Assembly: GCA_019057815.1 (NCBI GenBank)
Contig: JAHLWR010000039.1
Location: 1-16,504 of the forward strand
Direction of reading: 5' to 3'
DNA length: 16,504 nucleotides
DNA from: Candidatus Heimdallarchaeota archaeon
Lineage (GTDB): Archaea > Asgardarchaeota > Heimdallarchaeia > Heimdallarchaeales > Heimdallarchaeaceae
Notes under the pieces: generated by a model
Database searches by the model: none
What the model was told of the DNA's origin: nothing
The model's input: only the letters and a program-made list of their open reading frames with translations
Translations under genes and position numbers: made by a program
Part shown: positions 2,697 through 8,446 of the stretch, in pieces
How the letters are laid out: each line of letters starts with the position of its first letter
How positions within the stretch are numbered: the stretch's first letter is position 1

Positions 2697-4505
2697 CTAT
2701 TTTCTCGTTTTTTTTACTTTTACTGCTGCTACAATTGCATAGATGCATATTATCAATATCCAACTACTTCCTAAATTAACTGTTGTATGATTGGAAGTAG
2801 TGGTACTAGTCTCAGTTGATAAAGCGTATCCTGCTTGTTCCATATACATTTTTGCTAGCTCTAAATTATATTCATAAGGATTAAGAGAATCATCAAATCC
2901 GATACAGCCTTTAGGCATTGGAGTGACAGCTGGACTCCCCACTCCTTCTAAAAGCTCATCTATTATCATTTGGCGAGGTACTATGTGACTAATTGCTTTT
3001 CTAACATTGTTAGCTGCTTCAGCTGTTCCTACAGGCGTCAACTCCCCTGTACCTAGAATAGGATGTTTGAGATTGATAGCTATTTCGTTGTTTTCAAAAG
3101 AAGGGGCAATTAATGGTTGGATTTCTGATACACCTTTGTAATCATTTAACATTGGTAAATAATTAGCATCAACAATGTCAACATTACCATCTTTTAGTTC
3201 AGATATAGCTGTATCTTTTCCTTCAACGAATTTAAAAGCGATTTCGCTAACATATGGCTGTTTTCTGTGGTAGTAAACATTTGGTACAAGTTCAACAAGA
3301 TTGTTATCCAAACTAAAAGAAGACAGCTTAAAAGGACCACAAGAGGTAACTAGAGCATTACCAACATTTCCAGTTAGAGGGTACTCGTTAAAGATTCCAT
3401 ACCCATAAGTGGAAATGAGCGGTTCCACTGTGGATTTTTCTATTATACCACAACTCATAAGTTCAAAAGCAAGGAAACTTGCTTGATTAAAGTTAAATTG
3501 GATATTGTGGGTGTCTAGAATAACTACTGAATCATTATTAATTAAGTATTTTTCCAATAATCCTCTATTACTTGAATAGATTTCAGGGTTAAAATGCAAA
3601 TCGTATGTGTATTTAACGTCTTCCGCTAAGACAGGGTTTCCATTGCTGAATTTAGCACTTGAATTGATTGTTACATTAAATTGTAAACTATCTGAACTTA
3701 CAGTATAATCTAATGCGACTACTGGATCATAAAAGTGAAAATCATGTGCTCTTTGAAACAATCCACCATATACACTTTGCATCCATAGAGAATCATAATA
3801 CGATTCAAGAGAGAAGACTTGTGTATCATAAAATTCAACTGGACTAGCATAGTTTATAATGTGATCATCAGAATCATCCCAATATTCTGCTCTATGTTTC
3901 CCGACAGATAATAGAACAGCATCTATGTTAGTTAGGCTATCTTTAATTCCAAAAATACAACCAGGATTAATAATTGGAATCGAAGGTAGATCATCATAAA
4001 GAATCTGTTGTACATCTTGTACAATAAATTTTCTCTCTTGAGGATTAAATTCTGACATATAATCTTCTAGCAAGATATCATAATCGGGATTGGAGTATTG
4101 ATAAAGATTCGAACCATAAGGAGGGATTTCAGTACTATGAAACAGTTTAAAAGGTGACCAATCGAGTCCCCATGCCCAATCAACAAAGAGAACATCAAAA
4201 CCTCCCTGTTCATAAGTTGGAATGTAATCATAATAATCGGGCTCTCCTACTGGGTAATCCCATGTTCTTGAGAAAATGCTTGGCCATACAGATTGATCAT
4301 GAATATCGATTCCAATCCCAATTTTTGGCATTTCTTCTTTCATTAGGAACGCCCATTGATTTCGAGATGTAGAAGAAGCTGGTGATAGAAGACTTATTTT
4401 AAAAACTGGTAAAACGTCACTAGTCTGACTTTGAGTAAGACTAGAATTGAATAAAAATATTAATATTATTATTATTGATAGGAAAAGGGTTCCTTTTCTT
4501 TTCAT
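2697..4505 (-). CDS. ABC-type peptide/nickel solute-binding protein, family 5 (SBP1), circularly permuted, C-terminally anchored
   Basis: Signal peptide MKRKGTLFLSIIIILIFLF; motifs AKFSNGNPVLAEDVKYTY, SCGPFKL, VRKAISHIVPRQ, YEYNLELAKMYMEQAGY, YSNPDYD, QQILYDDLPSIP; Ser/Thr linker, hydrophobic helix, basic tail KVKKTRK. ATG 4505 preferred over GTG 4514. Confidence 0.9.
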   Translation of the reverse strand: MKRKGTLFLSIIIILIFLFNSSLTQSQTSDVLPVFKISLLSPASSTSRNQWAFLMKEEMPKIGIGIDIHDQSVWPSIFSRTWDYPVGEPDYYDYIPTYEQGGFDVLFVDWAWGLDWSPFKLFHSTEIPPYGSNLYQYSNPDYDILLEDYMSEFNPQERKFIVQDVQQILYDDLPSIPIINPGCIFGIKDSLTNIDAVLLSVGKHRAEYWDDSDDHIINYASPVEFYDTQVFSLESYYDSLWMQSVYGGLFQRAHDFHFYDPVVALDYTVSSDSLQFNVTINSSAKFSNGNPVLAEDVKYTYDLHFNPEIYSSNRGLLEKYLINNDSVVILDTHNIQFNFNQASFLAFELMSCGIIEKSTVEPLISTYGYGIFNEYPLTGNVGNALVTSCGPFKLSSFSLDNNLVELVPNVYYHRKQPYVSEIAFKFVEGKDTAISELKDGNVDIVDANYLPMLNDYKGVSEIQPLIAPSFENNEIAINLKHPILGTGELTPVGTAEAANNVRKAISHIVPRQMIIDELLEGVGSPAVTPMPKGCIGFDDSLNPYEYNLELAKMYMEQAGYALSTETSTTTSNHTTVNLGSSWILIICIYAIVAAVKVKKTRK

Positions 4506-4569
4506 AGTGCACACTTTTATCTTTTCTTTTTAAGTATACAAGAATATAGGAAGAATAAATATTTATCGG

Positions 4570-4590
4570 AAAAAAAGAAAAAGAAAAAAA
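4570..4590 (-). terminator. Oligo-T terminator after SBP2
   Basis: Minus strand reads TTTTTTTCTTTTTCTTTTTTT, starting 7 nt after the TAA stop at 4598. Confidence 0.65.
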
Positions 4591-4597
4591 CTAAGGA

Positions 4598-6499: not shown

Positions 6500-6534
6500 T
6501 TTTATGCATAATGGTTATCTACGCACTTCTTATG

Positions 6535-6556
6535 GAAAAAAGGGAAATAAGAAAAT
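6535..6556 (-). terminator. Pyrimidine/oligo-T terminator candidate after SBP3
   Basis: Minus strand ATTTTCTTATTTCCCTTTTTTC directly after the TAG stop at 6560. Confidence 0.45.
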
Positions 6557-6559
6557 AGT

Positions 6560-8446
6560 CTATTTTCTAAATTTCTTTAAAAAGATTATCGAAGTTATGC
6601 CTAAGAATGAGACTATTAGAAGACCAATACTTCCTACAGAGGCAGTTGTGTTGGTTATGGTAGTTGTTTCAGTCGTAGTAAATGTCTCTGTATATGTCAC
6701 GTTGACCGATTCAGTTTCTGTTACGGTATCTGTTATGGTATCTGTTACAGTTTCTGTCACAATAGGTAAACCCATTGAATAACCTGCCATTTCCATGTAT
6801 TTTTTAGCTAATTCAACATCATAAATATCTGGTTTAATTCCTTCATGATGACAAACACATCCTTCAGGAGTTATAGTACCTGCAGGAGCTCCTAAACCTT
6901 CCATAATTGTATCTACAATCGTCTGACGAGGAATAATATGACTTATTGCTTGGCGGACATATCTAGCTGCTGCTTCTGTTCCTTTGGGAGTTAGTTCACC
7001 TGTTCCAAAAATAGGATGTTTCATGTTTAATGCCATTTCTTGATGACCAAATCCAGGGGCTAGTAATGGCAGAACTCCTGATATTCCTTCAAAATCTAAA
7101 TAATTAAGAACATAATTACAATCTACTATATCAATTGTACCATCAGCGAGATCAGCAATAGCTGAGGTTTTATCACCGATAAATGTGAAGATTAATTGAT
7201 TTAATGATGGAGCTATTCCATGCCAGAATGGGTTTGGAACTAGTGTTGCTGTGCTAGTAACTGTGTCAAAATCACTTAACATGAATGGACCACAAGATGT
7301 AACAAGAGCTGTTCCTTCAGGTGTAACTACAGGTACCATATTGAAAATAGCAGTTCCTTGAGCAAGGAAGTATGGTTCAACTGTCGACTTATCAATTATC
7401 TGGTAGGAGAATAGCTGTTCAACTAAGGGGTAAGGTTGGTTCAAATTGAATTGAATAGTAGAATCATCAATAACGACAATTGAGTCATTACTCACAAAGT
7501 ATTGAGCCAGATACCAATAGTCGCCCGAACCCACAGATGGTGTCATGTGTAATTCATAAGTATATTTGACATCTTCTGCGAGGACTGGGTCTCCATTGCT
7601 GAATTTAGCATCCGGATTGATTGAAACGTTAAATTGCATTTTATCAGTGCTTACCGTCATACCTGTTGCAATAGATGGTTCCATGATTCTTGAACCTTGG
7701 GCTCTTGCGAATAGAGTTCCATACACACACTGCATCCATAGACCATCAAAATGTGATTCTTGGACAAAAGTGTTGTATTCGGAAAATTCAGCTGGAAGGG
7801 CGTAAATAATAGTATTATCTATTGAATCAACCCAGAATTCCGATCTATGACTAGTTGAAACTATTAGTGTGGTATCGATACCACTTATACTATCTCTTAT
7901 TCCTAAGAGTTCTTTACCGTAAACTAGTGGGATTGACGGTAATTCAAAATCTAGAACAGCTTGCATTTCCATTAAACTTGAAATTCTTTGGGTTGGATTT
8001 GAACTTGTCAAATAATCATTATGAAAACTATCGTAATCAGGATTACTGAATTGGTAAAAGTTGTCTCCAGCTAGCACAATACTAGCTGTGTCATATAAAC
8101 CTGTTGGATCCCAATCTAATCCCCACCCCCAACCTACGAAGAGAATGTCATAACCACCTTCATCATATGTAGGAATGTAGCTATAATTCACGCCTACTGG
8201 ATAAGCCCATGTCCTTGTGGAAATGTTTGTCCATCCAGTCATGTCATTATAAGATACATTGATTCCTATTTTGGCTAATTCCAATTCTATCAAGTTAGAC
8301 CATTGTATTCTCATAGGGTTTGTATTTGGTGTAAGTAGACTAATGTTAAAAACAGGATCAGGATCTTGACTTTGAATAGTTTCAGGAATTATCAAGGGTA
8401 TTAAAAATAAAATTATTGCACTAACTAAAATCATTCTTTTTTTCAT
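6560..8446 (-). CDS. ABC-type peptide/nickel solute-binding protein, family 5 (SBP3), circularly permuted, C-terminally anchored
   Basis: 628 aa; signal peptide MKKRMILVSAIILFLIPLII; same motif set as SBP2; long Thr-rich stalk, TM, KKFRK; many N-x-S/T sequons (NIS, NVS, NYS, NDS, NVT, NTT). Confidence 0.92.
   Translation of the reverse strand: MKKRMILVSAIILFLIPLIIPETIQSQDPDPVFNISLLTPNTNPMRIQWSNLIELELAKIGINVSYNDMTGWTNISTRTWAYPVGVNYSYIPTYDEGGYDILFVGWGWGLDWDPTGLYDTASIVLAGDNFYQFSNPDYDSFHNDYLTSSNPTQRISSLMEMQAVLDFELPSIPLVYGKELLGIRDSISGIDTTLIVSTSHRSEFWVDSIDNTIIYALPAEFSEYNTFVQESHFDGLWMQCVYGTLFARAQGSRIMEPSIATGMTVSTDKMQFNVSINPDAKFSNGDPVLAEDVKYTYELHMTPSVGSGDYWYLAQYFVSNDSIVVIDDSTIQFNLNQPYPLVEQLFSYQIIDKSTVEPYFLAQGTAIFNMVPVVTPEGTALVTSCGPFMLSDFDTVTSTATLVPNPFWHGIAPSLNQLIFTFIGDKTSAIADLADGTIDIVDCNYVLNYLDFEGISGVLPLLAPGFGHQEMALNMKHPIFGTGELTPKGTEAAARYVRQAISHIIPRQTIVDTIMEGLGAPAGTITPEGCVCHHEGIKPDIYDVELAKKYMEMAGYSMGLPIVTETVTDTITDTVTETESVNVTYTETFTTTETTTITNTTASVGSIGLLIVSFLGITSIIFLKKFRK
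6717..6764. repeat. 12-bp imperfect tandem repeat (4 copies) encoding T-(V/I)-T-(D/E) units of the SBP3 stalk
   Basis: tctgttacggta / tctgttatggta / tctgttacagtt / tctgtcacaata. Confidence 0.75.

Follow-up and report, generated by a model that had tools for sequence, protein, structure and literature searches.

Three tandem genes on the minus strand of a 16,504-nucleotide stretch of DNA from a Candidatus Heimdallarchaeota archaeon (assembly GCA_019057815.1, contig JAHLWR010000039.1, positions 1 to 16,504; hereafter, the window) encode family-5 solute-binding proteins (SBPs) whose domain, judging from sequence comparisons, is circularly permuted. Few bacterial proteins have been studied as thoroughly as the OppA/DppA-type binding proteins, which also find wide use as biosensor scaffolds. 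Unlike these canonical cluster C SBPs, the window proteins, referred to as SBP1, SBP2, and SBP3, put the last third of the domain (~170 residues) first, and their termini are predicted to lie in lobe 2, not in lobe 1. We propose, at a probability of about 0.72, that they are permuted cluster C receptors, present as tandem paralogues, which would capture ligands for Opp-type translocators acting in trans and whose chain order would flip by tandem fusion.

Three tandem genes with the same layout

The three open reading frames (ORFs), each uninterrupted, encode proteins of 605, 615, and 628 aa (P0001, P0002, and P0003), which are 46–61% identical to one another and are tandem paralogues. All start with a hydrophobic signal peptide, which is followed by a domain of ~530 residues, then by a Thr-rich stalk (~20–47 residues), and finally by a C-terminal transmembrane (TM) helix and a basic tail. 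We call C-block the part that corresponds to the canonical C-terminal third, that is, the second half of lobe 2 plus the last strand of lobe 1, and N-block the part that corresponds to the canonical N-terminal two thirds.

2697..4514, minus strand: SBP1 (P0001, 605 aa from GTG 4514); C-block 3897-4409, N-block 2826-3875, stalk and TM helix 2700-2825
4515..4597, minus strand: SBP2–SBP1 spacer, with a T-rich tract and an A/T-rich element
4598..6445, minus strand: SBP2 (P0002, 615 aa), type-1 circularly permuted cluster C binding protein, as read from sequence and model
6374..6445, minus strand: SBP2 signal peptide, residues 1 to ~24 (hydrophobic N-terminus; model helix 2–23)
5834..6361, minus strand: SBP2 C-block, residues ~29–204 (matches canonical-sister profile 400–573 and PDB chain residues 412–526)
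5816..5848, minus strand: SBP2 junction of old C-terminus to old N-terminus, residues ~200–210 (predicted local distance difference test, pLDDT, 90–96)
4781..5833, minus strand: SBP2 N-block, residues 205–555, ending MEEAGY (Pfam profile 3–296; VIA Z 22–23.5)
4670..4780, minus strand: SBP2 stalk rich in Thr/Ser/Ile/Val, residues 556–592 (sequence; pLDDT <50)
4601..4669, minus strand: SBP2 C-terminal TM helix and basic tail, residues 593–615 (sequence; model helix 593–614)
6446..6559, minus strand: SBP3–SBP2 spacer, with a T-rich tract past the stop and an A/T-rich TATA-like element ~45 nt ahead of the next ATG
6560..8446, minus strand: SBP3 (P0003, 628 aa); C-block 7850-8362, N-block 6779-7819, stalk 6638-6778, TM helix and tail 6563-6637

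Because a T-rich tract follows each stop and a TATA-like element precedes each start, the genes look like separate transcription units, which suggests that the three are transcribed separately. The longest ORF of SBP1 opens at GTG 4514; three codons further in, the ATG at 4505 gives a protein that starts MKRK..., as in the paralogues, and is the likelier start.

The last third of the domain precedes the first two thirds

The Pfam profile SBP_bac_5 (PF00496) placed all three proteins in the family, with 170.5, 186.4, and 184.9 bits for a cut-off of 32.4. The match was restricted to profile positions 3–296 of 368, at residues ~255–578 in all three, and the absent end of the profile (positions 289–358) matched upstream in the same frame. 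An earlier, sequence-only reading of this DNA had predicted just such a pair of matches in swapped order. As a matter of fact, none of P0001–P0003 gave the collinear match across the whole profile that goes with the canonical order. The PDB sequences told the same: residues 240–566 of P0002 aligned with 61–380 of an HbpA/DppA-type chain and residues 89–199 with 412–526, again in swapped order, and none of the PDB chains ran collinearly with the permuted proteins. Each window protein was matched twice by a profile of Heimdall relatives in canonical order, with profile positions 400–573 at residues ~25–200 and profile positions 30–395 at ~208–560. Finally, P0002 was aligned with the core of a canonical Heimdall relative, P0154. 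With the core doubled, a single collinear local alignment ran from residue 15 to 555 (536 positions, 39.7% identity, score 939), whereas with the single core only 205–555 aligned (score 576); shuffled queries scored 44 ± 6 in the doubled-sequence test. Collectively, the Pfam, PDB, sister-profile, and doubled-sequence alignments confirmed the permutation in all three window proteins and, with it, the initial claim that the last canonical block stands directly after the signal peptide. NCBIfam equivalogs (DppA, OppA, NikA, GsiB, and Opp4A) gave at best 82 bits for cut-offs of 393–1005, and all these matches were partial.

The junctions were where they had been proposed to be. The old C-terminus (~199) and the old N-terminus (~208) are bridged at ~205 by a linker of ~7 residues, and the chain is now broken between the EAGY helix and the strand FS(I/L)NLL, two elements that canonical relatives join by a loop of a few residues. 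Thus, the old termini had rightly been described as fused and the new ones as opened after EAGY. The IIYALP-type strands of the canonical N-terminus were located at ~3863, 5815, and 7816, a few nucleotides from the positions first given, and each domain does end at E(Q/E/M)AGY, followed by the Thr-rich stalk and the TM helix.

The tether is predicted to leave from lobe 2

An AlphaFold2 model of P0002, built on 37 homologues, reached a mean pLDDT of 83.6, with values >90 through the junction. Foldseek and VIA-align, which are sequential aligners, matched only model residues 203–560, to the first ~320–378 residues of DppA, OppA, MppA, NikZ, GsiB, and others; with VIA, Z was 22–23.5 over 314–329 aligned residues, and the DppA, OppA, MppA, and NikZ chains were matched from their first residues. 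A match of the N-block only is the pattern that sequential aligners are expected to give with a permutant. The first block alone (residues 28–204, 8-row alignment) folded at a pLDDT of 42.5, a poor model, as one would expect where a piece takes part in two domains.

In MppA, lobe 1 comprises residues 23–284 and 509–537 and lobe 2 residues 288–506, with hinges at 286–287 and 507–508 (PMC6022919). Since model residues 203–560 align to MppA (4toz) 23–378, the new termini would fall in the middle of lobe 2 (MppA equivalent ~378), leaving both hinge segments intact. The canonical termini are both in lobe 1. According to the model, the Thr stalk and TM anchor therefore leave from the opposite lobe, and this part of the sequence-only reading holds.

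The chain would thus run from the signal peptide through the second half of lobe 2, cross the second hinge into lobe 1, and pass through the short new linker; it would then build lobe 1, cross the first hinge into the first half of lobe 2, and stop there at the EAGY helix. The fold and the cleft would be retained, as would both hinge segments, and the Thr-rich stalk and C-terminal TM helix would tether the protein to the membrane from lobe 2. The permutation would shift the tether relative to the translocator-docking face of the receptor, a point of relevance to archaeal ABC importers.

Permuted genes dominate the family-5 complement of Heimdall-group genomes

The proteins closest to the window SBPs all came from Heimdallarchaeota/Heimdallarchaeaceae metagenome-assembled genomes (MAGs), where they are annotated just as "ABC transporter substrate-binding protein." An exhaustive search of representatives returned 234 clusters at E <1e-30. 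Among 270 fetched proteins, 202 were collinear with P0002, that is, permuted, and 41 matched it in swapped order at 29–41% identity, a count that includes four short fragments (P0227, P0239, P0240, and P0252) and two other chain orders (P0243 and P0268). The named canonical-order relatives were likewise from Heimdallarchaeota. P0154 has a Thr stalk and a TM anchor at its C-terminus, as the window proteins do.

The genome that holds the window has 13 permuted family-5 SBP genes, all of them orphans. Six belong to group A (the three of the window and one each on contigs C45, C36, and C35) and seven to group B, which is divergent and a large Heimdall family in its own right (C3, three genes; C27, two; C43 and C4, one apiece). 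Canonical genes are limited to one intact copy (C30) and one split copy (C27). The latter (G000:C27:71985-74080, L035) consists of two overlapping ORFs of 300 and 408 aa in different frames, the mark of either a frameshift, a pseudogene, or an error in sequencing. In a single-contig relative (G068), all family-5 SBP matches were of the permuted type, and no canonical-order match was found. The permuted form is the dominant family-5 binding protein in Heimdall-group genomes. Profile-based annotation covers only two thirds of its domain.

The permuted form is widespread and recurrent

The sequence-only reading had called for a survey of the taxonomic range, and the permuted form turned up in several Asgard families, other archaea, and bacteria. 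The same cut was found in the Asgard families f5, f11, f17, f18, and f19 (one of which is annotated Baldrarchaeia), in Thermoproteota, including Desulfurococcaceae, in Geothermarchaeota, and, among bacteria, in Desulfobacterales, Limnochordales, and one Proteobacteria MAG. The Desulfobacterales forms are soluble, with a signal of the twin-arginine translocation type and no anchor, and the form of Desulfurococcaceae AG1 has an N-terminal anchor, so the permutation is not tied to C-terminal tethering. Conversely, canonical Heimdall sisters have the same stalk and TM helix. An obligatory link between permutation and membrane anchor, as the first description of the window might have implied, was thus not borne out.

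Other cuts of the same fold exist. In a "type 2" order the cut lies near profile position 240; it was seen in a Nitrososphaerota locus (L069) and in P0458, which clusters with a protein from a Bacillota MAG. P0243 (624 aa) is cut at yet another site. P0243, P0436/P0458/P0492, and L069:7431-9497 are all further permutations, with cuts near canonical profile positions ~170–240. In addition, two metagenomic assemblies yielded in-frame double proteins of 1217 and 1245 aa (P0268 and P0278), in which the unit order [profile 492–562][22–484] occurs twice and is followed by a stalk and a TM helix; these are possibly fusion intermediates or else represent a further cut site. Permuted cluster C proteins are thus widespread and recurrent. 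The two orders coexist at up to 60–67% identity alongside tandem arrays and double-length fusions, which makes a natural system for studying the origin and cost of permutation.

Chain order changed several times

Only the N-block, which runs collinearly in permuted and canonical proteins alike, was used for the trees (FastTree with 138 and 208 rows; IQ-TREE, quick mode, with 100 rows). Permuted proteins appeared at no fewer than 8–10 separate places among canonical ones, and 8–10 changes of order were needed with both FastTree and IQ-TREE. A single clade of all 53 permuted rows was rejected by the approximately unbiased (AU) test (delta lnL 593, p 1e-130). In the Asgard family f11, permuted and canonical proteins are 60–67% identical in both blocks; thus, recombination of one block cannot by itself explain the pattern.

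Tandem arrays occur in the window and at 770–776 kb of the G068 genome. Together with the in-frame double proteins, they fit a route of duplication, fusion, and trimming. Most likely, the permuted order arises, and flips back and forth, through in-frame fusion of tandem copies followed by trimming, with tandem arrays providing the raw material. Two more specific scenarios were dropped. A reversal to canonical order in Heimdall, suggested by canonical sisters nested in group A in the FastTree and quick IQ-TREE trees, was abandoned because the AU test did not reject the monophyly of group A; paraphyly of the f11 permuted proteins was likewise unsupported, their monophyly not being rejected.

Permuted proteins as candidate receptors for peptide-type importers

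In several lineages beyond Heimdall, the permuted gene stands directly ahead of genes for Opp-type translocator subunits:

L068, Limnochordales: same cut; binding-protein gene, then OppB
L084, Desulfobacterales: same cut; binding-protein gene, then OppB and OppC
L104, Proteobacteria MAG: same cut; binding-protein gene, then OppF, OppB, OppC, and OppD
L111, Desulfurococcaceae AG1: same cut; binding-protein gene, then OppB and OppC
L069, Nitrososphaerota: type 2 cut; heads a full operon with OppB, OppC, OppD, and OppF

A canonical Heimdall sister (39% identity; G003:C18 = L018:8120-10042) also heads an operon, composed of the SBP, a long OppB, OppC, OppD, and OppF. Two ORFs of 521 and 330 aa without a Pfam match (L018:10111-11676 and L018:15805-16797) are interspersed in this G003 operon.

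In the genome of the window, the canonical C30 gene is the only family-5 SBP gene beside permeases. Two Opp operons there have no binding protein: that of C43, with OppB, OppC, OppD, and OppF, and that of C16, with a long OppB (578 aa), OppC, OppD, and OppF, adjoining an S9 peptidase. The G068 relative has one full Opp set and further permease genes, none with an adjacent binding protein. The OppC of the canonical-sister operon in G003 is 53% identical to C16 OppC, against 33% for C43 and 28% for C30. From this likeness, and from the existence of Opp operons without a binding protein, we infer that the permuted proteins serve as receptors in trans; the C16-type translocator would be the most likely partner and that of C43 a possible one. 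They most likely still feed ordinary peptide-type ABC importers: ligands, probably peptides, would be captured at the cell surface and handed to translocators encoded elsewhere, the many orphan receptors sharing few of these. Peptides are proposed as ligands on account of the family itself and of a neighboring peptidase and amino-acid dehydrogenase. Predicting a complex between the membrane part of C16 OppB (240–578) and P0002 31–556 gave a score of 0.38, equal to that of one control.

The long OppB has a feature of its own. In C16 (L014:9243-10979), as in L018:11711-13264 and L028:6672-8393, an N-terminal extension of ~180–240 residues brings the protein to a total of 517–578 aa; this extension is mostly without a Pfam match and is conserved in three Heimdall-class genomes.

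Points against the proposal and alternative explanations

Some observations weigh against the proposal. No ABC permease or ATPase gene is present in the window, and in none of the four Heimdall-class genomes examined does a permease gene adjoin a permuted one; the closest case (G235) is ~5 kb away, with a MacB-type ABC pair in between. The partnership in Heimdall has thus to be inferred. Within Heimdall group A, the AU test does not reject a single origin of the permuted members, the constrained tree being even better, and the same test leaves the f11 permuted proteins compatible with monophyly. The fusion-and-trimming route is a proposal drawn from fused forms and tandem arrays. Lastly, sequential superposition covered the N-block, and the C-block was placed from the sequence and the full-length model.

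The absence of linked permeases raises the possibility, which the sequence-only reading had mentioned as a sensor or adhesin role, that the permuted tethered proteins have left transport and serve at the cell surface as sensors or adhesins, or else form an abundant coat of the envelope in an archaeon for which no S-layer is recognized. All 13 permuted genes of this genome are orphans, their copy number is high, and each protein carries a long Thr stalk and a TM anchor. Moreover, in Promethearchaeum syntrophicum, an Asgard archaeon available in culture, a family-5 SBP exceeded all other detected proteins in abundance and was the main N-glycoprotein, while no S-layer protein was found (PMC11284389). 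Yet same-cut homologues sit in opp operons in several phyla, directly upstream of oppB/C/D/F genes, the genomes with orphan permuted genes also have Opp operons lacking a binding protein, and in the complete relative G068 no canonical-order SBP match could serve these. In addition, canonical sisters with the same stalk and anchor are operon-linked. We therefore consider a non-transport role unlikely. A related idea for Heimdall-group archaea would have the recurrent flips, by moving the tether from lobe 1 to lobe 2, give rise to a large set of orphan stalked proteins whose role goes beyond serving a transporter; these would make up a major ligand-capturing surface layer or sensor array of the cell, and selection on receptor presentation, not neutral fusion of tandem genes, would drive the flips. 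It is equally doubtful at present.

Regarding origin, all type-1 proteins might form a single old family that arose by one ancient permutation and spread vertically and by transfer with a stable order. The cut does fall in the same loop in every lineage seen, and the tests within group A and within f11 allow for one origin there. In contrast, the AU test on all 53 rows, the interspersion of permuted clades among canonical relatives with 8–10 changes, and the likeness of both f11 blocks, which leaves one-block recombination without explanatory power, speak against it, and we regard a single event as more improbable still than a loss of transport function. Flipping by tandem fusion remains our preferred account. 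As to an artefact, a tandem arrangement could in principle lead to the end of one canonical gene and the start of the next being read as a single ORF through mis-assembly or mis-called genes. But the ORFs run uninterrupted from signal peptide to stalk, TM helix, and stop, with T-rich spacers between the genes; hundreds of collinear homologues come from independent assemblies, single-contig genomes included; and the junction is modelled at a pLDDT >90. The artefact reading is refuted by these observations, and its residual probability is negligible.

Comparison with known binding proteins

Canonical cluster C SBPs (E. coli DppA 1dpp, 1dpe, and 8z1z; OppA 1ola and 3tcf; MppA 4toz; NikZ 4oet; GsiB/YliB 1uqw) belong to the same family and show the same fold elements. 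Like them, the window proteins would be bilobed, with the two hinge segments kept, and a translocator of the OppBCDF type would be the expected partner. Unlike for them, neither the window genes nor the other permuted copies of this genome have linked oppBCDF-type genes. The canonical Heimdall sisters (P0154 and G003:C18) are closer: they are 35–40% identical in both blocks, come from the same archaeal class, and share the design of signal peptide, stalk, and TM helix. They differ in giving a single Pfam match (2–358) in canonical order, and the G003:C18 gene, as described above, heads an Opp-type operon.

Sugar- and peptide-binding proteins of Sulfolobus are OppA-like; they begin with a signal peptide and end in a Ser/Thr linker and a TM anchor. 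Their membrane tethering is the same as that of the window SBPs. A Thermoproteota protein in our set (L067) combines the canonical order with a C-terminal anchor. A natural circular permutation of an ABC binding protein has a precedent in TpMglB-2 (Tp0684), a glucose-binding protein of Treponema pallidum for which "Type Ic / Cluster Bc" was proposed (Brautigam et al. 2016, PMC4990184). Proteins of the TpMglB-2 kind are mostly tethered, and TpMglB-2 binds its ligand (PMC4990184). However, TpMglB-2 is a cluster B, type I protein with an extra, fourth lobe crossing, whereas the window proteins match PF00496/cluster C only and have unchanged hinge segments. The permuted part of TpMglB-2 is poorly conserved, while here both blocks are ~40–65% identical to canonical relatives. 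By analogy, we refer to what, on sequence grounds, is a circularly permuted subclass of cluster C binding proteins as "Cluster Cc," expanded here into orphan tandem arrays. The sequence-only reading knew of no such permuted family; consistent with this, we found none in the PDB or NCBIfam, and in the literature only engineered permutations of binding proteins and the cluster B protein TpMglB-2, none for cluster C, although our literature coverage was incomplete and a description may exist.

Other genes of the window

The neighbors of the array encode a pyridoxal phosphate (PLP)-dependent enzyme, a TPR protein, zinc-ribbon proteins, a luciferase-like monooxygenase, and a glycyl-radical enzyme with its activase. 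The PLP-dependent (PALP) enzyme (8606-9850, minus strand, 414 aa) adjoins the array upstream on the same strand, and its Pfam domain begins only at residue 101. On the plus strand (12038-15206), a radical-SAM activase of 269 aa is directly followed by a pyruvate-formate-lyase-like glycyl-radical enzyme of 789 aa (PFL-like, 772 bits, plus a Gly_radical domain). The 679-aa TPR protein (9856-11895, minus strand) lies upstream of the SBP array. A distant paralogue, L015:3101-5101 (G000:C28), shares 20% identity with it over 486 residues (E 2e-6), and a lone OppB gene stands two genes upstream of this paralogue. The similarity between the two reaches into the non-TPR C-terminal region, and they could represent a shared regulator.

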